Assembly (NCBI GenBank): GCA_010672185.1
Contig: JAAHHL010000032.1
Location: 5,937 to 69,936, forward strand
Reading direction: 5' to 3'
DNA: 64,000 nucleotides
Source of the DNA: Caldora sp. SIO3E6
GTDB taxonomy: Bacteria > Cyanobacteriota > Cyanobacteriia > Cyanobacteriales > Coleofasciculaceae
Notes under the pieces: generated by a model
Databases searched by the model: none
What the model was told of the DNA's origin: nothing
The model's input: only the letters and a program-made list of their open reading frames with translations
Position numbers and translations under genes: made by a program
Part shown: positions 19,817 through 53,828 of the stretch, piece after piece
Layout of the letters: each line of letters begins with the position of its first letter
Position numbering within the stretch: position 1 is the stretch's first letter

Positions 19817-20325
19817 CAAATGCTGAAATTCAAGCCAGTATCGCTTCAATACTGGCTGACCAAACAAAAACACCACTCTATAGTTTGCTGGGACTTTCTT
19901 CTATCGATTACCAGATAGAAGCTGAGCGGATGGTACGGAGTGCGATCGCAAAGTACGAACCTCGCGCTGAAGTAATGGCGGTAGAGTTTTCTGACGGGTT
20001 GGAGGTACTGTGGCAACCTCTCACTCATAATATTATGAGTGACACTTACCCAAACTACTCATCACTACCCCCACAAGAAGCTGCGGATAAATTAGTGGAA
20101 TATGCTTTGGCTCAGTATTTAGGGAGTACCTACCCCCAACTCCTCCAAGGAGGGGAGGTAGTTGAGGAAATAAGGAGAGCAGTAGAGTCGGATGCTAGGT
20201 TGAGTGTCGTCACTGTGTCCGGACACAGCGACGGATACCAAGTAGAGATTGTATCGTCGGCAGCTATCGAAAAAATTCTCAGATACGATAGCATCTCACA
20301 GTATGATGGCACTTGGAGCTACTAA
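19813..20325 (+). CDS. Hypothetical protein, possibly gp25/GPW-like baseplate component
   Basis: 170 aa with a TTG start. The segment AERMVRSAIAKYEPRAEVMAVEF resembles the gp25-family core. Weak support. Confidence 0.35.
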   Translation: MTNAEIQASIASILADQTKTPLYSLLGLSSIDYQIEAERMVRSAIAKYEPRAEVMAVEFSDGLEVLWQPLTHNIMSDTYPNYSSLPPQEAADKLVEYALAQYLGSTYPQLLQGGEVVEEIRRAVESDARLSVVTVSGHSDGYQVEIVSSAAIEKILRYDSISQYDGTWSY

Positions 20326-21101
20326 TACGATCCGTGCCTGACCTTCCTGAAAATTCAGCAACCTACCCCGCCGCTGTACGCCAAATTGATTCTGGGGAAT
20401 TTGCAGTAGGGGGAGATACTACTAAACCCCCAAATGAGCAGCTGCTTGCTTTGGCTAGTCGGACAGCATTTCTGAAGGCTCAAGTTGATGCTCTTACAGC
20501 TGCGATTAACGGATTGACTATTGGAGAAGAGGTCCAGGCACACTCTGGTACACTAGATGCGATCACAGGGTTAAACCTGATTGCTGATAAATTCATTGGA
20601 ACCAATAGTGCTGGAACGATCACTTTAAAATCTGTTCCGACAATATCAATAGCCATTTTACAAGATTTCAAAACTGCCTTTGGGGGACAGGGAAATACTA
20701 CCGGGTGGTTGAAGCGTGACTTGAATGATAAACAGGAAACTGGTACAAGTTTCTGTACTTTGAATGGTGACAGTACCTTCAGCTTGCCAGCTGGGAGTTA
20801 TTTAGTTTGGGCTAGAGTGCCAGGGACAATGGTAGATAAGCATCAGTGTCGCGTCGCAAATACTACCGACACTATTTACTATAAGGGCAGTTCAACTCAG
20901 ACACTAACCGCCGCTGCTGTATCGGGGCAGAGTATTACTACCGATAGCTGGGTGTTTGCTACTTTTGCGATCGCATCTACAAAAACGTTTCAGATTGAAC
21001 ATAGAATCTACGATACTATTATTGACCGCAGTTTAGGTGCTGAGGTGGGTACAGGGATGGGGGAGGTTTATACTCAGGTTGTCATTGTTAAGTTGGGCTG
21101 A
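20313..21101 (+). CDS. Tail-fibre-like protein
   Basis: 262 aa with a TTG start. The N-terminal motif (NEQLLALASRTAFLKAQVDAL) resembles the conserved tail-fibre N-terminal helix, and the C-terminus is beta-rich. Confidence 0.45.
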   Translation: MELLIRSVPDLPENSATYPAAVRQIDSGEFAVGGDTTKPPNEQLLALASRTAFLKAQVDALTAAINGLTIGEEVQAHSGTLDAITGLNLIADKFIGTNSAGTITLKSVPTISIAILQDFKTAFGGQGNTTGWLKRDLNDKQETGTSFCTLNGDSTFSLPAGSYLVWARVPGTMVDKHQCRVANTTDTIYYKGSSTQTLTAAAVSGQSITTDSWVFATFAIASTKTFQIEHRIYDTIIDRSLGAEVGTGMGEVYTQVVIVKLG

Positions 21102-32632: not shown

Positions 32633-34886
32633 TTGTCCACATCAACGAACCAACCTCCTAAAGCTTCTCCCCAGTATGAAACGCTCACCGGAGTTGTGGA
32701 GCGTCTGACTTTCTATTCGGAAGAGTCAGGCTATACCGTTGCACGTCTGATGCGCCCCAAAGCCAAAGAGCTGACAACCATTGTCGGCAGCTTCGCCAAC
32801 ATCCAGCCTGGACAGACGCTGCAACTAACAGGCTTTTGGCGAGAGCATCCCCAATACGGCTCTCAGTTCCAGGTTAGCAAATACATTGAAACCAAACCCG
32901 CCACCCTCACAGGAATTGAGAAATATTTAGGCAGCGGCTTAATTAAAGGTGTTGGACCTGTGACTGCCAAGCGTATTGTAGAGCACTTTGGACTCACCAC
33001 CCTCGATATCATTGAAAACCATATTGAACGCTTGCTAGAAGTCCCAGGAATTGCCCACAAGCGGGTTGAGATGATTCAAAGTGCTTGGGAGACCCAAAAA
33101 GCCATCAAAGAGGTGATGGTGTTTTTGCAAGGGCATGGCGTCTCCACCACCTACGCAGTCAAGATTTATAAACAATATGGTGATAGTGCGATTGCCTACG
33201 GCACCAGCGAAGCTGATCGCTACTGTTCAAAATAACCCCTACCAATTAGCCGTTGATATTTATGGCATTGGTTTTCTCACCGCTGATAAGATTGCACAAA
33301 ATCTGGGTATTCCCCTTAACTCCAGGTTCCGTTACCAGGCTGGTATTTTGCACGTTCTGGGTGAAGCGGCAGAGGAAGGACATAGCTGCTTGCCACAACC
33401 GCATTTAGTGAACTTGAGTGTAAAACTGCTTTCGACAGAGGAACACCCAGCCATACCAGAGACGATGGTTGATGTTATTGAGGACATGGTACAGCAGAGG
33501 GAGTTAATCGTTGAAACTCCAGAAGAAGGAATGTTGTTGTGCTATAAACCCACCTTCTACTACACCGAGATTAACTTGGCACAACGCCTCAATCAGCACC
33601 TCAGCAAACCCGTCGCGGTTGACCTGCCCCGTGTGAGAAACTGGATTGAGCGGTTTACCGAGAGTCGGGGTATCGCTCTCTCCCACCAGCAACAGCAAGC
33701 GGTGGAAATGGCGGCTTACTCCCGAATCATGGTTCTCACAGGGGGTCCTGGCTGTGGTAAGACCTTCACCACCCATACCATTGTCTCATTGTGGAAAGCA
33801 ATGGGCAAATCCATTGCCTTGGCTGCACCCACCGGACGGGCTGCACAGCGGCTAGCTGAGATGACAGGGCTAGAAGCCAAAACCCTGCACCGGCTGTTGG
33901 AGTTTGACCCCAGAACAATGGATTTTAAGCTTGGCGTTGATAACCCTCTGCCCCATCAGGCAATTGTGGTGGATGAGGCTAGCATGTTAGATCTGTTTTT
34001 AGCCAACTCTTTGGTGAAAGCTCTACCGCTAGACGCTCAACTTCTGCTGGTAGGAGATATTGATCAACTGCCTTCAGTTGGACCTGGAAAGGTATTGCAG
34101 GATTTAATCAACTCCAAGCGAGTGCCTGTAGTGCGCCTAACCCAAGTCTTTCGCCAAGCAGCCCAAAGCGCCATTATTGCAGCAGCTCACCACATCAATC
34201 GGGGGCAGTATCCGGCAATTGAACATATTTCCGACACACCCCGCTCTGACTGCCTCTGGCATGGTGGCGGACATCAGCCGGAGCATGGGGTGCAAGTAAT
34301 TGGGGAGCTGATTGGGGAGCTGATTCCCAAATTGGGCTTTAATCCCGCCACAGATGTTCAAGTGCTTTGCCCTATGACTAGGGGTTTAGTGGGGACTCGG
34401 AACCTCAATCAAGTTTTGCAGCAGCTCATCAATCCCAGATGTCCTGAGCAGACCGAGATTCAAAGAGGTGGGATGCTTTTGAGAGTTGGCGATCGCGTGA
34501 TACAACAAACCAATGACTATCAGCGGGAAGTCTTCAACGGGGACTTAGGGATAATTACCAAGATTGATACCACTGAGCAGGAGGTAAGTGTACAGTATGA
34601 CCAACGTAATGTGAGTTATGATTATGCTGACCTCAATGAGATTACCCTAGCCTGGGCAGTAACCATCCACAAAAGCCAAGGCTCAGAGTATCCGGTGGTT
34701 ATTCTACCACTATATATGCAGCACTATCTGATGCTCTCTCGCCACCTGCTCTACACAGGACTGACTCGCGCCAAGAGATTAGCGATTGTGATCGGGGCAA
34801 AGAAGGTAATTGGCATCGTGGTGAACTCTGGTGAAAGACAGCAACGCTACACAAGGTTGCAGCAGCGGCTGGAGATGGTAGCTTAA
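32633..34886 (+). pseudogene. recD2: RecD2-like SF1B DNA helicase split into two overlapping frames (32633-33235 and 33135-34886)
   Basis: The first ORF carries the N-terminal OB/HhH region (LIKGVGPVTAKRIVEHFG). The second carries NPYQLAVDIYGIGFLTADKIA, Walker A (LTGGPGCGKTF), VVDEASM and TIHKSQGSEYP. The frame switches at ~33190-33225. Confidence 0.65.
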
Positions 34887-35836: not shown

Positions 35837-36796
35837 ATGAGTTCCCCCACATTAGCCTCAAACCCTAACCCCTTAGCAGCGATCGCCAATCGTGACTTAC
35901 TGGCGCAGCTGCTCTCAGACAAGCGTTCACCCCATACTCGCCACGCCTATGCCAAGGATTTAAAGGATTTCTTTCGCACCATTGCCGATTCAGAAGCAAC
36001 CCCAGAGATGGTGACATATTTCCTGCAATTGGAGCGAGCTGATGCAGTGACGCTGGTGCTGCGCTACAAAGCGATGTTGATTGAGCGGGGGTTGAAGGAG
36101 GCAACTATTAACCGCCGCCTATCTGCGATTAAATCTTTGGTGAAGTTGGCTAGGAGTGCAGGCAAGTGCGACTACACCCTCGAAGAGGTCAAAGGGGAGA
36201 AAGTGCAAGTTTATCGGGATACCGCAGGTATTAGTCGGGAGTTGTACCGCAAAGTGCTAGCTTTGCCTGATAGGGTGGAGTTGAAGGGAAAGCGGGACTA
36301 TGCTCTGCTGCGACTGCTGTGGGATAATGCCCTGCGGCGGGGGGAAATTGCTAAGGCGAATATTGGCGATTTTGATGCGGAGACCAAGACCCTCAAAATT
36401 AGGGGGAAGGGAAAGGGGACGGTATTTGAAGTGATTGACCTGTCGTTAACTACTACAGAAGCAATTCGAGATTGGCTTTTAGCGCGGCGGGAGTTAAATA
36501 CTTCGGCACCGTTGTTTATTTCTGTTGACCCGGTGAAAAAGGGTAATCGGATTACGGGGGCAGGAATTTATTGGATTGTGCAGCAATATTGTAGGGCGGC
36601 GGGAGTTAGCAAGCAGATGTCTCCCCACCGCATTCGCCACAGCAGTATTACTGCGGCATTGGATGCTACTAATGGCAATGTGCGTAAGGTGCAGAAGCTA
36701 TCTCGCCATGCTCAGATTGATACGCTGATGGTGTATGATGACAACCGCTCCAAAGACCAATTGGAGATTTCAACTCTGCTGGCGGATATGGTTTGA
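35837..36796 (+). CDS. Tyrosine site-specific recombinase (XerC/D / phage-integrase family)
   Basis: 319 aa. Contains LRRGEI (Arg), HRIRHSSIT (His-x-x-Arg) and SRHAQIDTLMVY (His ... Tyr). Confidence 0.9.
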   Translation: MSSPTLASNPNPLAAIANRDLLAQLLSDKRSPHTRHAYAKDLKDFFRTIADSEATPEMVTYFLQLERADAVTLVLRYKAMLIERGLKEATINRRLSAIKSLVKLARSAGKCDYTLEEVKGEKVQVYRDTAGISRELYRKVLALPDRVELKGKRDYALLRLLWDNALRRGEIAKANIGDFDAETKTLKIRGKGKGTVFEVIDLSLTTTEAIRDWLLARRELNTSAPLFISVDPVKKGNRITGAGIYWIVQQYCRAAGVSKQMSPHRIRHSSITAALDATNGNVRKVQKLSRHAQIDTLMVYDDNRSKDQLEISTLLADMV

Positions 36797-36858
36797 CTTT
36801 CAATTTAGTTTAAATTCCTTAAACAGAGAAATATTATATTATAATTTAGTTACTAATT

Positions 36859-39800
36859 ATGTTTGAGAAATTTACTGAAAAAGCAATAAAAATAGTTATG
36901 CTAGCTCACGAAGAAAGTATCTACCTGGGTCATCAAGAGATTGGTACAGGAGAGCTTCTCTTGGGCTTAATCAAGGAAGAAACTAGTCAAGCCTCTAAAG
37001 TTCTTAGAGAGGCAAAAGTCAATGTAGAAAATGCTCGTAGAAATGTAAAAAAAATAGTGGGTGGGAGTTCAGATTTTATCAGCAAAGGAAAAGAAATTTC
37101 TTTCAATGCCCACATTAGGAGAGTTATTCAATTTGCTTCGGAAGAAGCTGAGCAATTAAAACACAAAGAGATTACTCCAGAACATCTCCTATTAGGTTTA
37201 CTTAGGGAAGAAAAGTCAACTGCTGTTAGAGTTTTACAGAACTTGGGAGTTGAACCAATCCAGATACGTACTCGCATTCTGCCTGATGGAGCTAGCAATA
37301 TTCAAAATTACTTTACCTTAGTTCAAGAACTGCTCGATAATCCAGACAAAAGAACTGAAATTCTCAAGGTAAAGTCTGAACTGGTAAATAGCGAGTTTAC
37401 AGTTATCCTGACAGGATTAGTAGATTTGCTTATCAAGGGTAGCAATAAACAGGTAGCTAATTCTTTGCAGGATATTTCAGCCCAACTAGATCTGAAGGAG
37501 GAAAGTTCCCAGAGTAGTTACCAGTCTCGTGAAGTAGAAGCTGATTATCAAACCAGTCCTGATTTTTTCTATCAGCTTTTGCGGCTGATTTATGAGAGCA
37601 AAGCTGACTCTCAAGTAGTATATTCTTTCCTAGAGCAGAATTTAGATAAGCTTAACAAAAGCTTAATCAAACACTTGCAAAACTGGGCAAACAAAGCTCT
37701 ACATAACGTTAAAGAAGAACAAAGGCCAGAGATAGCTAAGCGAATTACTACTTTGTGTGCCCTAATCAAAGAGTTTCCCCAGGGAGATCCACTGATTAAA
37801 CAGGAAATAGCTATGGCTGGTTATGAGATTGTGGCTACTGTTTTAACTAAAAACAAAAAAAAGGAAGTTAAGGAAGTTCAACATAACCAAGAGACTAAAT
37901 CGGAGAAAGAGGAAAAAATAGTTCAAGTTGAAGAGGAGAAAACTGAGCTCACAAACCTATCTTTAACTGAACCAAAGCAACCTGAGAAAAAATCAGGGGT
38001 AGTAACGTTTAATAATTTTGCAGAAAAAGCAATAAAAGCGCTGGCAATAGCTCAAGAAGAAGCTCTGCGTCTAAAAAGCGAATATATAGATACAATTCAT
38101 ATTTTGCTGGGTTTAATCGGTGAAGGAACAGGACTTGCAGCTCGCATCCTGAGGGCAGAAGGTGTGAAGCTGAAAGATGCCAGGAATCAGGTTCGAGAAA
38201 CTATTGGTGGCGGTTCTAATTCCGCCCAGGAAATTTCCTCTTTTACACCAAGGACTAAAGAAGCTCTTAAAGGTTCTATAGAATTAGCTTCTCAATGGAA
38301 AAGTGACCAAGTTGACACAGAGCATATGCTGATTAGTTTACTTCAAGAAAATGATGAAGTTACAGCTCTAGTACTAGGAAAATTAGGTATTCAATTACAA
38401 GAATTAACCAATAAGTTGCTGGAAATGGCGAAAAAAAAAAGTAACCCTAATTTAGGTGAACAATCGTCCAATAACCAACCACGCAAAAAAGCAATTATTG
38501 TCAATGACAAGTCAGTTGATCTACAGTACGTAGACTTTTTTGTACAAGTTCTTGATGTAGTAGCAACTAATAGAGACCAACAATTTATCAACTCGCTATT
38601 ACAATCTAATTCTGACAAACTCGATTATAAATTTATTCAAACATTACAAATTTGCTCCCAGACAACCATCTCAGATCTACTTGATAATAAACCACTGAAC
38701 TACAAAGAGGAACTCCAAACATTTGCCAGGGATATTGGTGATTTGGCAATAGCAATTGCAGATATTTCCATCGAAGATAAAGAAATTAATTTAGAAATTG
38801 CGATCGCTGCCTTGGAAATTGTTATGACTATATTCACTCGTCAGGAATTTCCAGAGCAATGGGCAATTGCTCAATACCATCTAGCCAATGTTTATTTAGA
38901 AAGAACTAGTGGAGGCATAACTAATAACCTCAAAAAAGCTGTTGATGGTTATGGAAGGGCTTTACAAGTGCAACCAGACTGGAAAGAAGCTTGGTTACAT
39001 AAAGGTAGAACACTTTTGAAATTAGAGCGTTTTCAGGAAGCAATTACTAGTTTTGACCGAGCCTTGGCAGTACAGTTAGATACCTCTGATGCGTTTCATG
39101 ATGCCTGGATTTGGTATCTCAAAGGTATTGCACTAGGACATTTAAGAAATTATGAGGAGTCAATTGTTAGTTTTGACCGAGCTTTAGAAATAAGTCCTGA
39201 CTATTCTGGTGCTTGGTTTAACCGTGGTACTTCACTGTATTGCCAAGAGCGCTACGAAGATGCCCTTTATAGTTATGATAAAGCTATCGAGTTTCAACCT
39301 GAAAATGCTTCGATTCGGTTGAGCCGAGGTTTTGCACTAAGGAAACTGGGGAATTGGGTAGAGGCTGCTGCTAGCTTTGACCAAGCTTTGAGACTTGAAC
39401 CAAATAACTATAAAGCTCTGGAATGTAGAAATGATATTTTTCAAAGGATAGTAAGTAGTAGTAGTGCAGAGGAAATCGCAGCATTAGCGAAAAGATACAG
39501 AGGACAGGGAAATCAAAGCTTAGCTGAACAGTTGCAGGAAGAAGTAGAACACCAGGAAGGATTTGCAGAATTAGAGAGATTGGCTTGGGAATTAGCAAAT
39601 GAGGGTAAAGAACTAGCTGACAGCTTAAGGAATAATGAATCTCCACCAAATCACCCAACGTCAGCGTTACTAGGAGAAAAAGAAAGAAAGCAATGGCAAT
39701 TTTTCCAAGAAGCCATACTAAATAGGCAATGGACATTCTTAGAAGAAGCTATAGCAAAAATTACATATGATTACAACGAAAAAGAATATAGAAAGTTTTT

Positions 39801-42800
39801 GCAAGACAACTCAGAATTGTTAAAGGGAGAGCTTTTCAATGTATATGTGGCTGGGTTTATTTACGAAAAAGTCGAACAAAATAATTTACATCAAGCTCTA
39901 AAGTACGCCAATAGTGTTCTTGAGTTTTGCATGATTTTTCAAGATTATCAAGAACGTTTTTGGCCTGAGATTGGTCAAACAGTTGTTTATATATACCATG
40001 AACTTATATCATCACTGGGACTTAAATTAGGAATTTTTCAGTCTGGCGAAAATAAGGCATCTAATTGGTTCTCTTCCGAAGATGTTATAGCGAATATCTC
40101 CCAGATAAAATCTTATATTACTCAGAAGTCCTATATAGATAATCGACCCTTCGGTAAACCAAAGCCGAGAAAGGGCATTTCAGGAATGTTCGGTTCATTG
40201 CAAGCAATTTTTAATCCGATTCCTGTTCCTGATGATTATGGACTGATTCTGCTAGCAATCATCTTCACTAGACTTGGTCGTGCTTACCTTGAGCAAACTG
40301 AGCTTAAGTTATGGGAAAAGAATAGTAATGAAAAACTTGCGATTAAATGTTGCGAACTTTCATTGGCAGTATGGGAACGTACTGATTTACCAACTGAGTG
40401 CATTTACACTCATTATTGTCTGGCTAAAGCTTATAGTGAATTGAAGGAAGGAAATAGAGCCGAAAATATAGATAAGGCAATTTATCACTATGAAAAAACT
40501 CTAGAGAGTGTTACTCGCTCTGACAATCCTGATCAGTGGGCAACAACTCAAAATAACTTAGGTGTTGCTTACCGCCGACGTATTCGCGGCAATAAGTCTG
40601 AAAATATTAGGAAAGCAATTAGTTATTATCAAGAAGCTTTGAAGGTGAGAAAGCAAGATGTTCATCCCGCTCAATGGGCTAATACCCAAACTAATTTAGG
40701 TTTTGCTTATTTGTGTATTCGCGAAGATAAAGTCTCCAACATAAAGAAGGCAATTGACTGTTTTCATAAGTCATTGCAAGTTCTCACTCTAAAAAGTTTT
40801 CCTGAGTATTGGATAAGAGCTCAATTCAATCTAGGTAATGCGTACTTGGAACTATCTATCTTCCAAGGAAATGGTTACAAAGAGCAGTCCATTCATCATT
40901 ATGAAAATGCTTTACAAGCTTGTCAGAATTTGAGGTTACAAAAACAAGCTGCTGACATACAGATATGTCTAGGCAAAGCTTACTCCACGTACTTTGCTAC
41001 GGATGGTAAGGCTGAGTACGGGGAGTTAGCTATCAAATACTGTAACAGTTACTTGAGTGTTGTTAATCAAAAAGATAATCCATTAGGTTTTGTAAATGCC
41101 CAAACTACTTTTGGCAATATCTACAAACAATCCCAACAATATGACAAGGCATATAGTTCCTTGGCTACAGCGATTGAGACATTAGAATCTTTGCGTGGCG
41201 ATATTGCTCAAAAGTTGGCCACAGAAGAGGACAAACAAAAATTGTCAGAGCAACAGAGTTTACCCTATCTGGGCATGGTAGAGGTCTGCGTGGAATTGGC
41301 AAAAAAAGACCCCAACTATTATATCCAGGCAATTGAATATGCAGAGCGTAGTAAAGCCCGTAACTTAGTTGAACTTCTGGCTAACAAAGACTTCTACCCA
41401 GATTCAAAACTTTTCTCCAATCCCAATGAGTATCAAGAAATCTGCGAGTTGCTGGATAAATTACGACAAGAAATTCCTGCTAAACAGCGTCAATTAGAGA
41501 TGATAGTGGGTAATAGTGAGTTGCAAGAAAAAGAAGCCGAACGTGTTGAACAACTACGCCAAGAGTTGCAGGAGTCACGAGGAAGGCAAAATGAGCTTAT
41601 AGAGTTCATTGGTAGAGTAGATACTAAATTCAAGTTTACCCAACAAGTCGAACCTATCCCCTTCGAGCAAATCAAAACCTTACTGGGGGCAAATACGGCA
41701 ATCATTGAGTGGTATGTTACACAAGAAAGGTTTTTTGCCTTTATCATCACCTCCAAAGCAGAGACTCCCATCATTTGGGAATCTTCTATTGAGGACTGGA
41801 GGACTCTAGAGGAGTTAATTGCCGACTACCAAGACAGTTACTATCGCGAGAAGGAGACTTGGCAGAAAAGGCTAAATCACTACTTGAGGAGTGTTGCTCA
41901 AATTCTGCGCTTAGAGGAAATTTTAACCAGCTATCTACCCCCAGACTGTCAGCAACTTGTACTCATTCCCCATCGTTCTTTACATTTAATCCCACTCCAT
42001 GCCTTACCACTTGCTGATGGTAGTTGTCTGTTGGATAGATTTGCTCAGGGGGTACGCTATGCACCAAGCTGTCAACTACTGCAATTGAGCCAAACTCAGC
42101 AATATCATGAGTTTGCTAATCTCTTTGCTATCCAAGAACCGGAAAATAGTCAATCAAAGCTAGCATATACTAAGGTGGAAGTTGAAGCTATTGGCTCCTT
42201 ATTCCCTGCTGCTGAAGTTTTAGTCGGAGGTGGGGCCACAAAAGAGGCGACAAGTTCTGCTCTAACGGTTAGCAATTCCTTCAATTATGTCCATTTTTCT
42301 TGTCATGGAGGTTTTAACCCAGATTTTCCCCTTGAGTCAGCCTTACTTTTAGCTGAGGATAAAAATCTGACATTAGGAGAAATTTTTGCCCTGAATCTCA
42401 ATCAATGCCGCCTAGTTACCCTTTCCGCTTGTGAAACTGGCTTAACTAATATTCGTTCCCTCAGCGACGAGTACATTAGTTTACCCAGTGGCTTTCTTTA
42501 TGCCGGAAGTCCCAGTGTCGTTAGTAGCTTGTGGACGGTAAATGACTTATCCACTGCCTTCTTGATAATTAAGCTTTACCAAAATCTGCAAAGTCAAATG
42601 TCAGTAGCAGTAGCTCTTCAACAAGCTCAACTTTGGTTACGGGATGTTACCAAACAGGAATTGGCAACATGGAAAAACCAGTTAACTATACCTCCAGGAG
42701 TCAGAATAAGCTTAAATCGTCGATTACAGAAAATTCCTGATAATGCTCAACTATTTCGATCACCTTTTCATTGGGCAGGGTTTTGTGCGATAGGGCAGTA

Positions 42801-42801
42801 A
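36859..42801 (+). CDS. Clp_N(x2 pairs)-TPR-CHAT protein (caspase-like protease), array gene A
   Basis: 1980 aa. Two Clp N-terminal repeat domains (FTEKAIKIVMLAHEES...GTGELLLGL at aa 1-145; FAEKAIKALAIAQEEA...DTIHILLGL at aa ~382-525), each followed by a helical module. These are followed by TPRs, then CHAT with a His/Cys dyad (HFSCHG; TLSACETG). Confidence 0.85.
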   Translation: MFEKFTEKAIKIVMLAHEESIYLGHQEIGTGELLLGLIKEETSQASKVLREAKVNVENARRNVKKIVGGSSDFISKGKEISFNAHIRRVIQFASEEAEQLKHKEITPEHLLLGLLREEKSTAVRVLQNLGVEPIQIRTRILPDGASNIQNYFTLVQELLDNPDKRTEILKVKSELVNSEFTVILTGLVDLLIKGSNKQVANSLQDISAQLDLKEESSQSSYQSREVEADYQTSPDFFYQLLRLIYESKADSQVVYSFLEQNLDKLNKSLIKHLQNWANKALHNVKEEQRPEIAKRITTLCALIKEFPQGDPLIKQEIAMAGYEIVATVLTKNKKKEVKEVQHNQETKSEKEEKIVQVEEEKTELTNLSLTEPKQPEKKSGVVTFNNFAEKAIKALAIAQEEALRLKSEYIDTIHILLGLIGEGTGLAARILRAEGVKLKDARNQVRETIGGGSNSAQEISSFTPRTKEALKGSIELASQWKSDQVDTEHMLISLLQENDEVTALVLGKLGIQLQELTNKLLEMAKKKSNPNLGEQSSNNQPRKKAIIVNDKSVDLQYVDFFVQVLDVVATNRDQQFINSLLQSNSDKLDYKFIQTLQICSQTTISDLLDNKPLNYKEELQTFARDIGDLAIAIADISIEDKEINLEIAIAALEIVMTIFTRQEFPEQWAIAQYHLANVYLERTSGGITNNLKKAVDGYGRALQVQPDWKEAWLHKGRTLLKLERFQEAITSFDRALAVQLDTSDAFHDAWIWYLKGIALGHLRNYEESIVSFDRALEISPDYSGAWFNRGTSLYCQERYEDALYSYDKAIEFQPENASIRLSRGFALRKLGNWVEAAASFDQALRLEPNNYKALECRNDIFQRIVSSSSAEEIAALAKRYRGQGNQSLAEQLQEEVEHQEGFAELERLAWELANEGKELADSLRNNESPPNHPTSALLGEKERKQWQFFQEAILNRQWTFLEEAIAKITYDYNEKEYRKFLQDNSELLKGELFNVYVAGFIYEKVEQNNLHQALKYANSVLEFCMIFQDYQERFWPEIGQTVVYIYHELISSLGLKLGIFQSGENKASNWFSSEDVIANISQIKSYITQKSYIDNRPFGKPKPRKGISGMFGSLQAIFNPIPVPDDYGLILLAIIFTRLGRAYLEQTELKLWEKNSNEKLAIKCCELSLAVWERTDLPTECIYTHYCLAKAYSELKEGNRAENIDKAIYHYEKTLESVTRSDNPDQWATTQNNLGVAYRRRIRGNKSENIRKAISYYQEALKVRKQDVHPAQWANTQTNLGFAYLCIREDKVSNIKKAIDCFHKSLQVLTLKSFPEYWIRAQFNLGNAYLELSIFQGNGYKEQSIHHYENALQACQNLRLQKQAADIQICLGKAYSTYFATDGKAEYGELAIKYCNSYLSVVNQKDNPLGFVNAQTTFGNIYKQSQQYDKAYSSLATAIETLESLRGDIAQKLATEEDKQKLSEQQSLPYLGMVEVCVELAKKDPNYYIQAIEYAERSKARNLVELLANKDFYPDSKLFSNPNEYQEICELLDKLRQEIPAKQRQLEMIVGNSELQEKEAERVEQLRQELQESRGRQNELIEFIGRVDTKFKFTQQVEPIPFEQIKTLLGANTAIIEWYVTQERFFAFIITSKAETPIIWESSIEDWRTLEELIADYQDSYYREKETWQKRLNHYLRSVAQILRLEEILTSYLPPDCQQLVLIPHRSLHLIPLHALPLADGSCLLDRFAQGVRYAPSCQLLQLSQTQQYHEFANLFAIQEPENSQSKLAYTKVEVEAIGSLFPAAEVLVGGGATKEATSSALTVSNSFNYVHFSCHGGFNPDFPLESALLLAEDKNLTLGEIFALNLNQCRLVTLSACETGLTNIRSLSDEYISLPSGFLYAGSPSVVSSLWTVNDLSTAFLIIKLYQNLQSQMSVAVALQQAQLWLRDVTKQELATWKNQLTIPPGVRISLNRRLQKIPDNAQLFRSPFHWAGFCAIGQ

Positions 42802-42803
42802 TT

Positions 42804-45800
42804 ATGGATGAACAGCGCCGAGAAGCTTATTTGAATTTAATCAATACATTGCTCAGTTGTCATGGTGATGAGGAAATAAATCGAGTCTTAAACGCTAACC
42901 AGGATCTGATTGACTCAGGATTGTTACAGGTGATGGTACAGGTGGCAGAGATATTAGCTGAGAGGGGCGACGAAAGTGCTGCTAATTTTTTGATTCATCT
43001 TACCCATCAACTATCTAAAGCACTTGGATTGCTCTCATCAACCCCTACATCTACTTCACTATCAAATTCAGACCCTCAACAGAGCTTTCTGTTGGAGGTG
43101 TTGCGGGCAATTTACGATAGTGAGGGCGACCCAACAGTAGTGTATCCGCTATTACAGGCAAACCTGGATAAACTGGATGATAACTTTATCCAAGTTTTGC
43201 AAAGTTGGGCTATAGCTACCAAGCCAAAAGTTGAGCCAGAGCAAGTTTATGAATTTGCCATTATTCTTAGCACTTGCTGTAATCTTATCGCGCAGTTTTC
43301 ACTTGGTAATCGTGCTATCAATCTTGAAATTGCTATTGTTGGCTATGAGGTTGTTATGACAATCTTTACCCGCCAAATTTTCCCTCAAGAATGGGCAAAA
43401 ACTCAAAATAATTTAGGTCTTGTTTACTCTGATCGCATCCTTGGAGAAAGGGCAGAAAATTTGGAAGCAGCAATCAATTATTTTTTAGCTGCTTCAGATG
43501 TACATAGCCACCAATGCTATCCTGAAGAATGGGCTATGCTACAAAATAATCTGGGTAATGCTTACTGCAAGCGTATTTTGGGAAAAAGGTTAGAAAATAT
43601 CGAAGCAGCAATTCAATGCTATTTAGAAGCTTCAAAGGTGCTAATCCGCAACACTTATCCAGAACAATGGGCTATGACCCAAAACAATTTGGGAAACGCA
43701 TACAGTGATCGCATTTGTTGGAACAAGACAGAGAATATAGAAAGGGCGATTTGCTGTTTCTCAGAGGCATTGGAAGTATACACCCGCCAAACTTATCCAA
43801 AACAATGGGCTATGACCCAAAACAATTTGGGCAATGCCTACTACAATCGCATTCAGGGAAGTAAGGCAGAAAATTTGGAAGAAGCAATAAAATATTATCT
43901 AGAGGTATTGGAGGTATACAACCGCGAAGATTATCCAGAACAGTGGGCTATGCTACAAAACAATTTGGGCAATGCCTACTATGACCGTATTTCTGGAGAT
44001 AAAGCCAAAAATATCGAGATAGCAATCCACTATTTTTTAGCAGCTTTAGAGGTATACACCCAAGAAGATTTTCCACAAGATTGGGCAGATAGTCAAAACA
44101 ATTTGGGCAACGCATACAGTGAACGCATTTTTGGACAAAGGTCAGAGAATGTGGAAGCAGCAATCCGATGCTACTCAGAGGCATTGAAAATACGTAGCCC
44201 TCACAAGTTTCCACAAGATTGGGCAGACACTCAAACAAATATTGGCATTGCTTACTATTATCGTATTCAGGGAAGTAGGGCAGAAAATTTGGAAGCGGCA
44301 ATCAAGTGTTACTCGGATGTATTGAAATTACGCACCCATCAAACTTACCCAGAAGAGTGGGCAAAAATTCAAAATAACCTAGGAAATGCCTACGGTGAAA
44401 GAATTAAAGGGGATAAAGCAGAGAATTTAGATATAGCAATCGGCTGTTTCTCAAAAGCTTTGAAGGTATATACTTATGAAACCTTCCCACAAGACTGGGC
44501 GATGACCCAAAATAATCTAGGTGAGGTATATCGTGTACACATTGAAGAAAACACTGAAAATATAGAATCTGCAATTAAGTGTTACTTAGCTGCATTAGAA
44601 GTCTACACTTCCGAAGCCTTTCCCCAAGACTGGGGAGATATTCAAAACAATCTGGGCATTGCTTACTATTATCGTATTCAGGGAAGTAGGTCAGAAAATT
44701 TTAAAGCAGCAATCGACTATTTCTTAGCTTCTTTAAAAATACGCATCCCTGAAGCTTTCCCTCAAAAAAATGCCGAAACTCAATTTAACCTTGGTTATAC
44801 TTATCAAGAATATCAACAGTTTAACAATGCCTATACTACCTTAGCGGCTGCCATTAAGATGGTAGAATCTCTACGGAGTGAGAGCAACATAGTATCGGAA
44901 TCTAATAAAGAAGAAGTCAAACAAAAACTGGCTGAAAAATATAACCAAATCTATCAATGTATGGTGGAAGTATGCTTAGAACTGAAGAACTGTACTCAAG
45001 CCATAAAATACGTCGAACGCAGCAAAACCCGCAACTTAGTAGAACTTATCCTAACCCGCGATCGCCACACGATTTTCCCCGCAGAAGTAGTTGTTCAACT
45101 AGATCGACTCCGAGATGAAATCGCTGGCGGTCAATACGAACTCCAAAATGCTACGGCGGAAGACCCTACAGCTTTAGCTCAACATCTCCAACAACTGCGA
45201 CAGCAGCGCAACGAATTACAAGACCAATACCTGCCGATTGGTTCTGGTTTTCAGTTTGAGCCATTCCGGTCAAAAGTGGGCGATCACAGGGCAATTGTTG
45301 AGTTTTATGTTACGACCGATAAGCTACTGGTTTTCATTATTACCAAGCAATCCCCACAACCGATTGTTTTATCCCCCGATTTGGTAGACCTGAAAAAATT
45401 AGAGACTTGGGCTAGTAGCTATTTGAAAGCTTATAGTAATAAAAAAGACCACTGGCAGCGCCGCCTCACTACCCGTTTAAATCTGCTGGCCAAAATTCTG
45501 CACTTTGATGAAATTATTGAGCAAATTCCAACAGAGTGCGACCAGTTAACCTTAATTCCCCATCGCTTTCTCCATTTACTGCCACTTCATGCTTTACCCC
45601 TAGCAGGGAACTCCAGTCTGTTTGAGAGATTTCCCCAAGGAGTTAGCTATGCCCCTAGCTGTCAACTTCTCCAACTGGCCCAAACTAGAGAACGTCCCGA
45701 ATTTACTCATCTATTTGCCGTTCAGAATCCAAGTAATTCAGGACAACCATTAAGCTATGCTGATGTAGAAGTTGAAGCGATTCAAAACTACTTTGACACA

Positions 45801-46469
45801 AGTAACGTTTTCAAACAGAAAATAGCAACTAAAGAAGCGATTGATGAGACTTCCCTCAATACCGTCCACTGTGCCCACTTTAGCTGTCACGGTTACTTTA
45901 ACACCAGCCAACCTCGCCAATCTGCTCTCATCTTAGCTAATGCCGAGCTAAATGCTGCACCCACACAACCCGATACAGAAAATTATCTCAGTTTAGAAAA
46001 TGGGGGCGTACTTGACCTCAATAAGTGCCTTACCTTAGATAAAATTTTCACTCTAAGTTTAGATAAATGTCGCCTCGTTACCTTATCTGCTTGTGAAACG
46101 GGATTGATTGATTTCCGGAATACCAGTGACGAATATATTGGTTTACCTAGTGGTTTCCTGTATGCAGGTGCTGCGATTGTGGTTAGTTCTCTGTGGACGG
46201 TGAATGACTTATCCACGGCATTTTTGATGATTCGGTTCTATCAAAATCTCAAAGATGGTTTAGCTGGGGCATTGGCGCTCAATCAAGCTCAACTGTGGTT
46301 AAGGGATTTAACTAAGGGGGACTTGGAAAGATGGATTGAGGAAAGTTCGTTACCATTGAAACCAGCAGTTAGGATAAGTCTGCGTCGTCGTCTTCATAAA
46401 TTGGAGGATGGTGCTAAACCTTTTGCATCGCCTTTTTACTGGGCAGCGTTTTGTGGGATTGGTCAGTGA
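42804..46469 (+). CDS. TPR-CHAT protein, array gene B (class 1)
   Basis: ATG lies 2 nt after the A stop. N-domain (EAYLNLINTLLSCHGDEE), a helical module, about eleven 46-aa WAxTQNNLGxAY repeats, and CHAT (HFSCHGYF; LSACETG). Confidence 0.85.
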   Translation: MDEQRREAYLNLINTLLSCHGDEEINRVLNANQDLIDSGLLQVMVQVAEILAERGDESAANFLIHLTHQLSKALGLLSSTPTSTSLSNSDPQQSFLLEVLRAIYDSEGDPTVVYPLLQANLDKLDDNFIQVLQSWAIATKPKVEPEQVYEFAIILSTCCNLIAQFSLGNRAINLEIAIVGYEVVMTIFTRQIFPQEWAKTQNNLGLVYSDRILGERAENLEAAINYFLAASDVHSHQCYPEEWAMLQNNLGNAYCKRILGKRLENIEAAIQCYLEASKVLIRNTYPEQWAMTQNNLGNAYSDRICWNKTENIERAICCFSEALEVYTRQTYPKQWAMTQNNLGNAYYNRIQGSKAENLEEAIKYYLEVLEVYNREDYPEQWAMLQNNLGNAYYDRISGDKAKNIEIAIHYFLAALEVYTQEDFPQDWADSQNNLGNAYSERIFGQRSENVEAAIRCYSEALKIRSPHKFPQDWADTQTNIGIAYYYRIQGSRAENLEAAIKCYSDVLKLRTHQTYPEEWAKIQNNLGNAYGERIKGDKAENLDIAIGCFSKALKVYTYETFPQDWAMTQNNLGEVYRVHIEENTENIESAIKCYLAALEVYTSEAFPQDWGDIQNNLGIAYYYRIQGSRSENFKAAIDYFLASLKIRIPEAFPQKNAETQFNLGYTYQEYQQFNNAYTTLAAAIKMVESLRSESNIVSESNKEEVKQKLAEKYNQIYQCMVEVCLELKNCTQAIKYVERSKTRNLVELILTRDRHTIFPAEVVVQLDRLRDEIAGGQYELQNATAEDPTALAQHLQQLRQQRNELQDQYLPIGSGFQFEPFRSKVGDHRAIVEFYVTTDKLLVFIITKQSPQPIVLSPDLVDLKKLETWASSYLKAYSNKKDHWQRRLTTRLNLLAKILHFDEIIEQIPTECDQLTLIPHRFLHLLPLHALPLAGNSSLFERFPQGVSYAPSCQLLQLAQTRERPEFTHLFAVQNPSNSGQPLSYADVEVEAIQNYFDTSNVFKQKIATKEAIDETSLNTVHCAHFSCHGYFNTSQPRQSALILANAELNAAPTQPDTENYLSLENGGVLDLNKCLTLDKIFTLSLDKCRLVTLSACETGLIDFRNTSDEYIGLPSGFLYAGAAIVVSSLWTVNDLSTAFLMIRFYQNLKDGLAGALALNQAQLWLRDLTKGDLERWIEESSLPLKPAVRISLRRRLHKLEDGAKPFASPFYWAAFCGIGQ

Positions 46470-49400
46470 TGGACGAAAAACAAAGACTTCAAGAATACGT
46501 CAAACTAATTGAGGAACTGCTAAACTGCCCAGACGGGGAGGAAGCCCAAATCCTTAACGCCAACCGCGAGTTGGTAGATGCGGGATTATTGCAGGTAATG
46601 GCACAAGTGGCAGAACAACTGGAAGCAGATGGTAATCAAAACGCTGCCGACTTTCTACGCGACCTCAATAGTCAGCTTGTAGAAGTCCTGGAAATATCAG
46701 AAACTACCTCAGCTAATCCCTCATCCCAAGACTATGAGAAATTCTTGATGGAGGTATTGCAGGCAACTGTCTACAGCATTGACAATCCTGAAGTCATTTA
46801 CAACCTACTGCAAGCGAACCTAGACAAACTAGATGACACCTTTATCATTGTCTTGCAAAACTGGGCAGAAACGAAACTCTCAGAGGTGGAATCATCAAAA
46901 GTAGAATACATCGCCAGCGTGATTGTAGAATTCAGCAACCTCATCAGGAATTTTCCCCCAGACAATAAGGCAATTGGCATGGAAATCGCCATTGCTGGTT
47001 ACAAAGTGGCACAAAACGCCTTTACCCGTGAGAGCAACCCAGAAACTTGGGTAAATACTCAGAATAACTTAGGGGTTGCCTACTGGAACAGGACATTAGG
47101 AAACAGAGCAGAGAATCTGGAAATGGCGTTCGATTACTTTCAACAGACATTATTTGTTTACACAAAAGAAGTATTTCCTACCGAGTGGGCAAGTACTCAG
47201 AATAACTTGGGTGTTGCCTACTGTAAAAGAATGCTAGGAGACAAGGCAGAAAATTTGGAATCAGCCATCACTTGCTTTCAACAGACATTATTTGTTTACA
47301 CAAAAGAAGCATTTCCTACCAAATGGGCAAAGATTCAGAGTAACTTGGGCGTTGTCTACCACGAAAGAAGACTAGGAGACAAGGCAGAAAATTTGGAATC
47401 AGCCATCACTTGCTTTCAACAGGCGTTATCTGTTTACACAAAAGAAGCATTTCCTACCAAATGGGCAGATACTCAGAATAGCTTGGGTAATGTATACCTT
47501 GAGAGAATAATAAGAGATATGGCGGAAAACTTGGAATTGGCCATTGCAGCTTACCAACAGGCGTTATCTGTTTACACAAAAGAAGCATTTCCCATCGATT
47601 GGGCAGGAATCCGGAATAACTTAGGTATTGCCTACAGTGACAGAATACTAGGAGATAAGACAGAAAATTTAGAAATGGCGATCGCGGCTTATCAACAAGC
47701 ATTGGAAGTTTACACAAAAGAAGCATTCCCCACCGAATGGGCGATGACTCAGAATAACTTGGGCAACGCCTACCGTGACAGAATACTAGGAGACATAGCA
47801 GAAAATCTCGAAATGGCGATGACTGCCTTACAACAGGCATTGTCCGTTCGTACAAAAGAAGCATTTCCTACCAAATGGGCAGATACTCAGAATAACTTGG
47901 GTATTGCCTACAGTGACAGAATACTAGGAGATAAGGCAGAAAACTTGGAAATGGCCATCGCGGCTTATCAACAGGCATTGTCCGTTCGTACAAAAGAAGC
48001 ATTCCCCACCGACTGGGCAGATACTCAGAATAACTTGGGTCTTACCTATAATGACAGAATACTAGGAGATAAGGCGGAAAACCTGGAAATGGCCATCGCG
48101 GCTTATCAACAAGTATTGGAAGTTTACACAAAAGAAGCATTTCCTACCAAATGGGCAGGAACTCAAAATAACTTAGGCAATGCCTACCGTGACAGAATAC
48201 GAGGAGACAGAGCAGAAAATCTGGAAATAGCCATCGCGGCTTATCAACAGGCATTGTCCGTTCGCACAAAAGAAGCATTCCCCATCGACTGGGCAACTAC
48301 TCAGAATAACTTAGGTGCTGCTTACGCTGGCAGAATACGAGGAGATAAGGCAGAAAACTTGGAAATGGCCATCGCGGCTTATCAACAGGCATTGTCCGTT
48401 CGCACAAAAGAAGCATTCCCCATCAACTGGGCAACTACTCAGAATAACTTGGGCGCTGCCTACAGTGATAGAATACTAGGAGATATGGCAGAAAATCTGG
48501 AAATGGCCATCGCGGCTTACGAAAAAGCATTAGAAATTCGTACAAAAGAAGCATTCCCCACTGACTGGGCAGATATTCAAAATAATTTGAGTCTTGCCTA
48601 CACTGACAGAATATTAGGAGATATAGCAGAAAATCCGGAAATGGCCATCGTTGCTTATCAACGAGTATTAGAAGTTCACACAAAAGAAACCTTTCCCACT
48701 CGGTGGGCAATGACTCAGAATAATTTAGGTATTGCTTACTGTGAAAGAATACTGGGAGACAGAGCAGAAAATTTGGAAACGGCCATCGCTGCCTACGAGC
48801 AGGCATTAGAAGTTTACACAAAAGAAGCATTTCCTAGCAAATGGGCAGGAACTCAGAATAACTTAGGCATGGCCTACAGTAAAAGAATACTAGGAGATAA
48901 CACAGAAAATCTGGAAATGGCCATCGCGGCTTACGAAAAAGCATTAGAAGTCCGCACACTGACAGCAAATGTCATTGAGCATTTCATAACTACCCGCAAC
49001 CTCGGCAACCTCTACTTTAACCAAGGCAACTGGCAACCTGCCATTGATGCTTATGAAAAAGCCATAACTGCAACGGAATTCATTCGCAATGAGGGAATCA
49101 CAGATAAACATCGCAACGAGTTGTTGGCAGGAGGGATCAAAGTTTATCAAAAACAGGTGCAATCTTATATCAATACACAACAATGGGATAAAGCTATCGA
49201 AACAGTCGAACGCAGCAAAACCCGCAATCTCGTAGAACTCCTTGCTAACCGCGACCTCTATCCCAAAGGTGACGTTCCCCAAGAGATAATCTTCCAATTA
49301 GATCGACTGCGACGCAGCATCCCCTCACTGGAAAGGCAGTTACAAGTAGTCATAGAGCAACTATCTACAACTACAAGCGAACAAGAACAAGCACAGCGAC

Positions 49401-53780: not shown

Positions 53781-53828
53781 TTTAACTCACCCTTTCACTG
53801 GGCACTGTTCTGTGTCATTGGTCAATGA
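53781..53828 (+). pseudogene. Relic of the last 15 codons plus stop of a class-1 CHAT gene (FNSPFHWALFCVIGQ*)
   Basis: Hand translation of the D-E spacer. Compare the paralog C-termini SPFHWAGFCAIGQ and SPFYWAAFCAIGQ. The relic stop overlaps the E start (CAATGATG). Confidence 0.75.

Follow-up and report, generated by a model that had tools for sequence, protein, structure and literature searches.

A 64,000-nucleotide (nt) stretch of DNA from the cyanobacterium Caldora sp. SIO3E6 (contig JAAHHL010000032.1), which we call the window, encodes a large protein that joins two complete copies of the N-terminal domain of the ClpC unfoldase (Clp_N) to a caspase-like CHAT protease. This protein is the product of gene A, and its domains are arranged in the order Clp_N, head, Clp_N, head, tetratricopeptide repeats (TPR), CHAT. 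Gene A is the first of at least eight tightly packed TPR-CHAT paralogues. Relative to Csx29, SAVED-CHAT, HetF, separase, ClpC2, and ClpT, it combines a known class of protease with an unreported input module. Gene A is not one of a kind: it belongs to a recurrent, unnamed group of proteins that share this architecture.

The two Clp_N domains were identified by several methods. An earlier note, made by reading the DNA alone, had placed Clp_N domains at amino acids (aa) 1-145 and about 382-525, and both calls were borne out by Pfam, by a ClpC profile, by comparison to protein structures, and by a structural model; the coordinates in that note were right to within a few codons. Pfam's Clp_N family (PF02861) matched gene A with E = 1.1e-44 (150.8 bits, as compared to a cut-off of 20.7) in four stretches, which correspond to two double-repeat domains. 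We also built a local hidden Markov model (HMM) from canonical ClpC N-domains of cyanobacteria and plants, and it found full-length copies at aa 1-141 (nt 36859-37281; domain E = 1.5e-41) and at aa 384-524 (nt 38008-38430; domain E = 2.3e-35). When gene A was compared to the sequences in the PDB with phmmer, aa 1-151 matched the N-domain of Arabidopsis ClpC1 (5gui, E = 1.7e-37) and aa 383-528 matched that of Bacillus subtilis ClpC (E = 2.7e-30); for the latter region, the matches to the ClpC N-domains of B. subtilis and Mycobacterium tuberculosis ranged from 1e-30 to 1e-25. In an AlphaFold2 model, both domains have a predicted local distance difference test score (pLDDT) of about 85-95. Foldseek aligned the model to structures of ClpC N-domains with a target-normalized TM score of 0.90-0.95 and a root-mean-square deviation of 1.1-1.4 Å, with output that leaves open which of the two Clp_N domains each match was superposed on. 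Also, the start of gene A (Met1-Phe2) pairs with the Met1-Phe2 of ClpC N-domains.

Domain 1 is 50% identical to the cyanobacterial ClpC N-domain and 37% identical to that of B. subtilis, and the corresponding values for domain 2 are 44% and 38%. The two domains are just 33% identical to each other. Both of them resemble cyanobacterial ClpC more than they resemble B. subtilis ClpC or each other; they are old and derive from a ClpC-type domain of cyanobacteria. As the earlier note had stated, gene A does not contain an AAA+ module: no AAA+ family was among its matches in Pfam or NCBIfam. The NCBIfam models for ClpB, ClpK, ClpG, and ClpV matched gene A across the N-domain only and far under their cut-offs, and the lack of AAA+ modules rules out that gene A encodes a Clp ATPase (a ClpA/B/C unfoldase). 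An exact-sequence look-up of the product of gene A in a public protein collection returned no record.

Each Clp_N domain is followed by a helical module, and the earlier note had described the entire unit as repeated. We compared unit 1 (aa 1-380) to unit 2 (aa 381-700) and found that they are 30% identical (E = 3e-25), with the helical module included in the alignment. Unit 2 is missing the first half of that module. We rejected a recent tandem duplication of the two units, as they are only 30-33% identical and each is nearer to ClpC than to the other. The repetition of Clp_N plus head is real but old. What the earlier note called a helical module is not a new kind of module: by sequence comparison, the helical modules are the heads with which the paralogous TPR-CHAT genes B, C, E, and F ordinarily begin (31-41% identity, with E down to 2e-23). 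Using BLASTP, we aligned module 1 to aa 20-201 of paralogue B (32% identity, E = 2e-23) and also to aa 13-199 of paralogue C; compared to the first ~200 residues of B and C, it is 31-32% identical (E ~1e-23). An HMM of the head matched within module 1 at aa 233-344, and module 2 is 29-41% identical to the heads of B, C, E, and F. The anatomy of gene A can be summarized as Clp_N, a head of the B/C type, Clp_N, a head of the E/F type, and then the usual TPR-CHAT body.

The AlphaFold2 model of the N-terminal part (~700 residues), which was built from an alignment of 10 sequences, gives the head modules a pLDDT of 70-85. The pLDDT falls below 50 at aa 213-231, 332-381 (which is rich in Lys and Glu), and 530-547, and the modules do not have confident mutual packing (the predicted TM score, or pTM, is 0.31). 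This low score and the disordered linkers indicate that the N-terminal modules are beads on a flexible string. Beyond the heads and the classical TPRs lies a middle region (aa 861-1189) to which no Pfam family could be assigned. We compared aa 384-1200 to 1.84 billion representative sequences and found mostly generic TPR proteins, whose best-matching stretch was in the TPRs. Among the matches listed, P0172 (80% identity) was the sole specific one and the only one to align through the middle region. (P numbers are our handles for proteins and protein clusters from public collections, and L numbers are our handles for loci.)

The C-terminal end of gene A matches Pfam's CHAT family (PF12770) at aa 1689-1980 (E = 4.5e-56; 190.8 bits, as compared to a cut-off of 24). 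The catalytic dyad that the earlier note had reported as intact is indeed present: His1816 lies in FSCHGG (nt 42304-42306) and Cys1858 lies in LSACETG (nt 42430-42432), and these align with H585 and C627 of the Csx29 protein of Scalindua (...LCHG... and ...GACET...). When 24 relatives were aligned, each of these two residues was at least 90% conserved. AlphaFold2 modeled aa 1421-1980 with confidence (pLDDT 87.8, pTM 0.87), and in Foldseek the best matches of this model were chains of Csx29/TPR-CHAT (E = 9e-18 to 1e-12), along with separase (E = 1e-10); lower matches included the CHAT anti-sigma factor DdvA, gingipain, and SAVED-CHAT. The product of gene A is a bona fide CHAT protease and is probably active.

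What might the Clp_N domains bind? In ClpC, the N-domains are the entry point for adaptors, for substrates that carry phospho-arginine (pArg), and for antibacterial peptides (PMC12583610). The known sites are the pArg1 pocket (T7 and E106), the pArg2 pocket (E32 and the region of T81), a hydrophobic groove for unfolded substrate and for cyclic peptide antibiotics, and also K85 (PMC12583610). In the numbering of M. tuberculosis, the groove comprises F2, V13/V14, F80, and their neighbors. Based on alignments, the core of the groove (F2, F5, A9, hydrophobic residues at V13/V14, and F80) is kept in both domains of gene A, and position 13 is V or L across the two. The pArg2 pocket is lost from both domains (E32 to G and T81 to N in domain 1; E32 to I in domain 2). 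The pArg1 pocket is kept in domain 1 (T7 and E106) and half kept in domain 2 (T7 is replaced by A and E106 is kept). K85 corresponds to R in domain 1 and K in domain 2. The same tendencies are seen in other fusion proteins: the groove core is kept in most of the Clp_N domains that we tabulated, while the pArg2 pocket is lost. Within the subfamily of P0121, P0124, P0131, P0133, P0135, P0136, P0139, and P0007, the aromatic residues of the groove are for the most part retained, and the residue at E32 varies. This combination of a kept groove and a lost pArg2 pocket suggests that selection has acted on groove-type binding, as opposed to simple decay.

Using full-length searches, we found at least 19 clusters (at 90% identity) of proteins that unite Clp_N with CHAT. 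These include clusters from Nostocaceae (P0121), Microcystis (P0122, P0123, P0126, and P0129), Symploca (P0135), Trichodesmium (P0014 and P0131), and metagenomes (P0124, P0125, P0133, P0136, and P0139). Their names are generic (“CHAT domain-containing protein” or “DUF3110 domain-containing protein”) or missing. So the architecture is moderately common and it is not functionally annotated. The earlier note had considered it to be undescribed, and this stands as far as publications are concerned, as our full-text searches of the literature returned only irrelevant or tangential papers and no description of Clp_N with CHAT; the architecture is not unique to gene A.

The full-length relatives are 27-41% identical to gene A, and most of them have one Clp_N domain. 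The metagenomic protein P0139 has the order Clp_N, head, Clp_N, classical TPR, CHAT, and it is 27% identical to gene A with 100% coverage. Since the two-Clp_N layout is kept at such low identity, the arrangement must have been maintained for a long time, and gene A and P0139 form a distinct subgroup with two Clp_N domains. As in the window, a fragment of an OB_YrrC helicase is encoded just upstream of P0139. The cassette of Clp_N, linker, and head is also found in P0121, P0124, P0131, P0133, P0136, P0139, P0007, and P0012, and an alignment of the cassette has 16 invariant columns. Gene A has all of the traits of this group: a ClpC-type domain, a head (F-x-x-Q-L-L-R ... N-L-E-I-A), TPRs, and a C-terminal CHAT domain. 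The cassette also precedes other kinds of C-termini, in P0007 (a beta-helix) and in P0016.

Clp_N domains appear to have been captured more than once. In P0158 and P0163, which are from high-G+C sequences, an N-domain of the actinobacterial ClpC1 type lies ahead of TPR-CHAT (for P0163, E = 2.5e-65 to the N-domain of M. tuberculosis ClpC1). Captured Clp_N domains are between 38% and 88% (P0003) identical to cyanobacterial ClpC, and the junctions differ, with a DUF3110 insert in Microcystis and a SKAD-type head cassette in the subfamily of gene A. This range of identities and the dissimilar junctions imply that ClpC N-domains were captured several times independently. Elsewhere, Clp_N is joined to caspase C14 (P0009), sigma-70 (P0027), Roadblock (P0013), DinB (P0021), or VIT/vWA (P0170) domains. 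Given this variety of outputs, Clp_N behaves like a portable input module.

In Trichodesmium sp. MAG_R02 (L002:4926-15329), two open reading frames (ORFs) in the same frame, with one stop codon between them, would together encode ~3,450 aa with the order Clp_N x3, an FtsH-like AAA module, a partial second AAA module, TPR, Clp_N x2, TPR, CHAT. Clp_N and CHAT can therefore co-occur with AAA+ modules. (Upstream of these ORFs is a gene for an AAA_15/AAA_21 ATPase.) The closest sequence to gene A is in a JGI metagenome (L082:9986-12983 in 3300021392), with 88-90% nt identity across two long segments. It fuses aa 543-1270 to aa 1710-1970 and is missing aa 1-542 and 1271-1709, and hence it does not have Clp_N. 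It adjoins a coupling protein of a type IV secretion system. The gene passes from one element to another and decays as parts of it are deleted. Our other searches for relatives added little. A scan of genome contigs with sequence patterns was dominated by one of them, MFEKFTEK, which matches the N-termini of ClpB and ClpC in other phyla, and its only useful loci were L002, L005, and L006. A profile search with the N-terminal alignment yielded no new relatives: the list was taken up by ClpC, and none of the candidates was a long CHAT relative.

We also made some side observations about these relatives. In Microcystis and its relatives (P0122, P0123, P0126, P0129, P0134, and P0137), DUF3110 (PF11360) directly follows Clp_N, and the second Clp_N repeat of these proteins is degenerate. 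P0126 is encoded amid toxin-antitoxin genes on the chromosome of Microcystis aeruginosa, and both P0121 and P0126 are encoded outside of any CHAT array. There are also proteins of 1,187-1,805 aa that are built solely from 7-10 Clp_N double-repeat domains in a row (P0001 and P0141-P0155), some of which are labeled as uncultured Cyanobacteria or are from soil metagenomes. We found no description of these Clp_N-only giants, which are possible multivalent sponges or scaffolds. Finally, the phages Myrna (gp251, NC_011273.1) and Phabba (NC_054714.1) encode a “Clp family protein” that is Clp_N-like and ~32% identical to aa 1-210 of gene A, so phage-borne mimics of the ClpC N-domain may exist in actinobacteria.

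Our preferred interpretation, in which our confidence is a little short of even, is that the Clp_N domains are a docking input for ClpC-type ligands and that they feed or gate an ATP-independent CHAT protease. The two domains would be tethered input modules whose retained groove docks a ligand that would otherwise be bound by ClpC, which could be a peptide or a protein, either adaptor-like or from a phage or plasmid. Having two copies on flexible tethers could provide avidity. The docked ligand might be presented to the CHAT active site and cleaved without the use of ATP. Or, it might relieve autoinhibition via the TPR scaffold and allow CHAT to cleave a downstream target, as in the partner-gated protease Csx29. 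The paralogues that do not have Clp_N would be sister sensors with other specificities. Because host-matched captures occurred independently in two phyla and are linked to varied outputs, it appears that ClpC-like binding specificity was what was selected. A bait that activates the protease and an adaptor that delivers its substrate are two variants that present sequence data cannot separate. The earlier note had suggested that recognition was rewired to a protease or that the protein is a decoy for or a bridge to the host's Clp system; these ideas are compatible with our findings, and ClpC2 offers a precedent (PMC10030653).

Several considerations weigh against the docking interpretation. We know of no ligand for the Clp_N domains of gene A, and none is recognizably encoded nearby. 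The rim of the groove differs from that of ClpC (Q17H, K85R, and E89Q in domain 1; E89K in domain 2), and with an altered rim, the ligand may no longer be a ClpC ligand. The conservation of F2, F5, and F80 may be due in part to folding. The HMM of the ClpC N-domain identified no Clp_N-bearing ORF in the window besides gene A. The deletions in L082 imply that at least one lineage can dispense with the N-terminus and the middle or is losing them. And when we compared the array to the models in PADLOC-DB v2, genes A, B, and E were unmatched and gene C had one weak match to a generic TPR model, so a role in defense is undocumented.

In plants, some nucleotide-binding leucine-rich repeat (NLR) immune receptors include an integrated decoy, or a copy of a host domain that is targeted by pathogens, and these receptors are often clustered with paralogues that have no decoy. 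As one form of the docking interpretation, gene A might likewise encode an integrated-decoy immune sensor on a mobile element: Clp_N would be bait for hijackers of ClpC-ClpP, and capture of the hijacker would switch on CHAT. We think that this is unlikely. The comparison to plants is just an analogy, as gene A does not have STAND or NB-ARC domains, its output is a protease, and there is no known effector. If it is a decoy, then the bait could target NblA-like adaptors from phages or peptide toxins that act on ClpC, and the downstream paralogues without Clp_N could be helpers, as in paired plant NLRs. The independent origin of such proteins in cyanobacteria (with viral NblA) and in actinobacteria (with cyclomarin, ecumicin, and rufomycin) would then coincide with phyla that have known hijackers. 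Cyanophages do encode NblA, which belongs to a family of proteolysis adaptors, and NblA proteins bind ClpC (PMC12695635).

It also seems improbable that the Clp_N domains are mimics that titrate ClpC adaptors or ligands away from the host's ClpC-ClpP, with CHAT acting independently, and thereby protect the element's proteins or rewire the host's proteolysis. Such a sponge would fit with the phage-like and plasmid-like genes in the window, with the precedent of ClpC2 as a molecular sponge (PMC10030653), with the Clp_N-only giants, which resemble pure sponges, and with the Clp_N-like proteins of the mycobacteriophages Myrna and Phabba. But a sponge needs to be present in high copy number, and at 1,980 aa, gene A would be a costly one. 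Furthermore, Clp_N has been fused to proteases (CHAT or caspase C14) in independent lineages, which argues that the input and the protease are coupled. We give even less credence to the idea that the Clp_N domains dock onto the Clp machinery or onto other Clp_N proteins (an “EAD-like” role) and bring CHAT to, or under, an unfoldase. The candidates for such docking are the M-domains or AAA1 of ClpC, the ClpP/R core (as has been proposed for plant ClpT1/T2), or the Clp_N repeats of a partner. In the resting state of ClpC, the N-domain does touch the M-domains and AAA1 via T7, R9, and K85 (PMC12583610), but gene A keeps these contacts only in part (T7 is A in domain 2 and K85 is R in domain 1). 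Similarly, the Trichodesmium locus combines Clp_N, AAA+, and CHAT in one frame with a single stop inside it, the PDB matches by sequence and by fold include ClpT structures, and vWA proteins of FtsH-type conflict systems can carry fused ClpN repeats (PMC7159879), yet the window contains no AAA+ gene and no second Clp_N protein, and homotypic interaction of Clp_N is undocumented in the literature that we covered.

The Clp_N domains might also be passive leftovers that serve as a soluble helical cap, with gene A working in the same way as its Clp_N-less paralogues. Six or more paralogues presumably function without Clp_N, a relative (L082) exists without the N-terminus, and one pArg pocket is degraded in each domain. 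On the other hand, both domains are complete, far above the threshold, and confidently folded in the model; the two-domain layout is preserved in P0139; the groove residues have been selectively retained; and independent captures in two phyla are difficult to account for if the domains have no function. So we doubt that they are passengers. Lastly, gene A could be an artefact, either of chimeric assembly or of a fused pseudogene. The family does recombine and decay readily (L082 has an internal deletion, L002 has an in-frame stop, and 62665-62853 is what is left of a head), and no identical protein is present in the public collection. Nevertheless, an artefact is hard to believe: the reading frame is uninterrupted for 5.9 kb, the start codon coincides with the Met1-Phe2 of ClpC, P0139 has the same domain order over 100% of its length, and L082 is highly similar across two long segments.

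To our knowledge, very few TPR-CHAT proteases have a known trigger or substrate (Csx29, SAVED-CHAT, and HetF). Like gene A, Csx29, which is part of the type III-E CRISPR Craspase, has a TPR scaffold followed by CHAT, with a dyad that can be aligned. Csx29 is a partner-gated, ATP-independent protease and the best structural match for the CHAT domain of gene A. However, gene A is about three times larger, with Clp_N and family-specific heads. We rejected the idea that gene A is part of a Craspase: NCBIfam's Csx29 model scored 95.4 bits, as compared to a cut-off of 300, and no Cas family was found in the scanned ORFs. We also rejected a STAND/NLR-like conflict system, as gene A does not have a central NTPase, and tested and rejected membership in the defense systems that are catalogued by PADLOC.

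For the Clp_N domains, there are several precedents. The chloroplast proteins ClpT1 and ClpT2 have a “double Clp-N motif” that stands alone, are from the cyanobacterial/plastid lineage, and were weak matches in the PDB (4y0b and 4y0c). ClpT proteins act on the ClpP/R core. Unlike gene A, they are small, single-domain proteins without a fused protease, and their identity is much lower. Mycobacterial ClpC2 is a homologue of the N-domain of ClpC1 without AAA modules, and it binds, senses, and sequesters cyclomarin A as a sponge (PMC10030653). ClpC2 was also among our matches in the PDB, and like gene A, it has a ClpC-type N-domain with no ATPase and a different output. It differs in that its output is promoter binding and autoregulation and in that it is small, is actinobacterial, and has a single Clp_N-like domain. 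Kaur et al. 2020 described ClpN repeats that are fused to rare vWA proteins in FtsH-type ternary conflict systems, and they noted that ClpN repeats were recruited outside of Clp ATPases in systems that are typical of multicellular bacteria (PMC7159879). P0170 (Clp_N with VIT/vWA) fits their description, while the word CHAT does not appear in their main text (PMC7159879). The other public Clp_N-TPR-CHAT proteins differ from gene A in that they mostly have one Clp_N domain and in that P0121 and P0125 are followed by a membrane protein.

Filamentous cyanobacteria and their plasmids encode TPR-CHAT proteases in abundance. For a subfamily of them, a recognizable copy of the ClpC docking domain as the input is a concrete handle, as part of the range of ligands of ClpC N-domains is known, namely adaptors, phospho-arginine, unfolded segments, and cyclic peptides. 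Two small and well-folded domains could thus lead to the trigger of a bacterial caspase-like protease. If Clp_N is bait, then gene A would be a bacterial counterpart of integrated-decoy immunity and would connect a protease that acts on cell fate with phage proteins or antibiotics that target Clp. If Clp_N delivers substrates, then gene A would be an ATP-independent route that re-uses Clp-type recognition.

Table 1. Positions of gene A, its parts, and other features in the window.
Feature	Position	Strand	Remarks
Lead gene A	36859-42801	+	Continuous ORF; ATG 36859, stop 42799-42801; 1980 aa
Clp_N domain 1 (aa 1-145)	36859-37293	+	ClpC-type double repeat; Pfam, PDB, HMM, AlphaFold2, Foldseek
Helical module 1 (aa 146-344)	37294-37890	+	Helical stretch, disordered loop aa 213-231, head aa 233-344
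Lys/Glu-rich flexible linker (aa 332-381)	37852-38001	+	pLDDT < 50 (AlphaFold2)
Clp_N domain 2 (aa 384-524)	38008-38430	+	Pfam, PDB, HMM, AlphaFold2, Foldseek
Head module 2 (aa 556-673), E/F-paralogue type	38524-38877	+	41% identity to B aa 106-225
Classical 34-residue TPRs (aa ~688-860)	38920-39438	+	Pfam TPR_1, TPR_2, TPR_8, TPR_11, TPR_16
Middle region, probably helical (aa 861-1189)	39439-40425	+	No Pfam family
TPR_10/TPR_12-like ~46-residue repeats (aa ~1190-1420), common to paralogues	40426-41118	+	Pfam (aa ~1230), BLASTP, HMM
Helical stalk and CHAT caspase-like protease	41119-42798	+	Pfam CHAT aa 1689-1980 = nt 41923-42798
Paralogue B	42804-46469	+	TPR-CHAT without Clp_N; 2 nt between A stop and B start
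Paralogue C	46469-50773	+	TPR-CHAT without Clp_N
Paralogue D	50776-53769	+	TPR-CHAT without Clp_N
Paralogue E	53825-56686	+	TPR-CHAT without Clp_N
Paralogue F	56703-59387	+	TPR-CHAT without Clp_N
Paralogue G	59387-62515	+	TPR-CHAT without Clp_N
Family head remnant, 62 aa	62665-62853	+	
Eighth CHAT-bearing ORF	62759-64000	+	Exits window end
Xer-type tyrosine recombinase	35837-36796	+	62 nt upstream of gene A; Pfam Phage_integrase and Phage_int_SAM_1
RecD2/TraA-type helicase, two overlapping ORFs	32633-34886	+	OB_YrrC+HHH, then AAA_30/SH3/UvrD_C
Tail-fiber-like ORF	20313-21101	+	
Replication initiator	17074-18321	-	
DnaB	15726-17069	-	
Triple DNA methyltransferase, 1,464 aa	10858-15252	-	C5-cytosine methylase, DpdA-like domain, Dam-type N6-adenine methylase
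Large terminase	7782-9221	-	
Portal	5254-7242	-	
DUF2213	4078-5241	-	
Major capsid	2535-3467	-	

The array that starts with gene A exceeds seven genes and includes decayed copies (Table 1). The gaps between genes from B through G range from -1 to +55 nt, where the 1-nt overlaps of B with C and of F with G are deduced from where the first Met falls in the translated sequences. Tandem repeats of 138 nt (46 residues) are present in B (43518-44170), C (47048-48951), and E (54197-54867). The array of repeats in C has 13.7 copies at 80% identity, which implies that this region, the presumed sensor, expanded recently and is diversifying rapidly. Neither gene A nor its paralogues contain an NB-ARC, NACHT, or STAND NTPase. 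Among the ORFs of the window that we scanned, there were no Cas families, including gRAMP/Cas7-11, and the tandem repeats within 35-64 kb are all coding TPR repeats. Scans of the window with Rfam and for tRNAs, promoters, and terminators gave nothing informative, and a promoter-like site upstream of gene A (36809-36837) was no better than expected by chance.

The window also contains phage-like and plasmid-like genes, which the earlier note had not noticed and which bear on the interpretation of gene A. Upstream of gene A and the recombinase are genes for RuvC, the helicase, ParA, and ParB. The helicase is split into overlapping ORFs, which implies a frameshift or a pseudogene, and its DNA is 75-80% identical to genes on plasmids of Nostoc and Fischerella. 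Farther upstream, the terminase is at most ~40% identical to that of any sequenced phage over most of its length, or up to 53% for its N-terminal half. Given this divergent terminase and the set of phage-type genes at positions 1-21101, the window includes part of a novel phage, prophage, or phage-plasmid. The 1,464-aa methyltransferase is probably for anti-restriction or for self-protection of the element. At ~36 kb, the G+C content falls from ~0.45 to ~0.41, which is compatible with the CHAT array lying inside the phage- or plasmid-like element or abutting it; 64 kb of sequence does not decide between these. There were no CHAT homologues in 50,697 records of sequenced phages and no relatives of gene A in the viral contigs of IMG/VR. 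TPR-CHAT genes are common on the plasmids of cyanobacteria and Streptomyces, and a plasmid of Pseudanabaena ABRG5-3 has tandem CHAT arrays that are comparable to the array in the window.

Near some of these genes, we noticed a conserved protein of ~480-535 aa with hydrophobic, probably transmembrane, segments at its C-terminus and no match in Pfam (L001:17299-18906, L083:16399-17958, and L086:10946-12391). It is encoded just downstream of P0121 and P0125 (after a short intervening gene) and also beside the CHAT array of the Pseudanabaena plasmid, and it is a candidate partner or substrate of Clp_N-TPR-CHAT proteases. Its identities are 53% and 33% (E = 1e-59 or better), and in the L083 and L086 loci, it is preceded by a protein of ~115-120 aa. 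Searches of the window with tblastn and an HMM did not find this membrane protein. Within the window, the portal protein has a C-terminal InPase domain (PF18823, inorganic-pyrophosphatase-like; aa 547-630), which is seemingly an unusual fusion for a portal.

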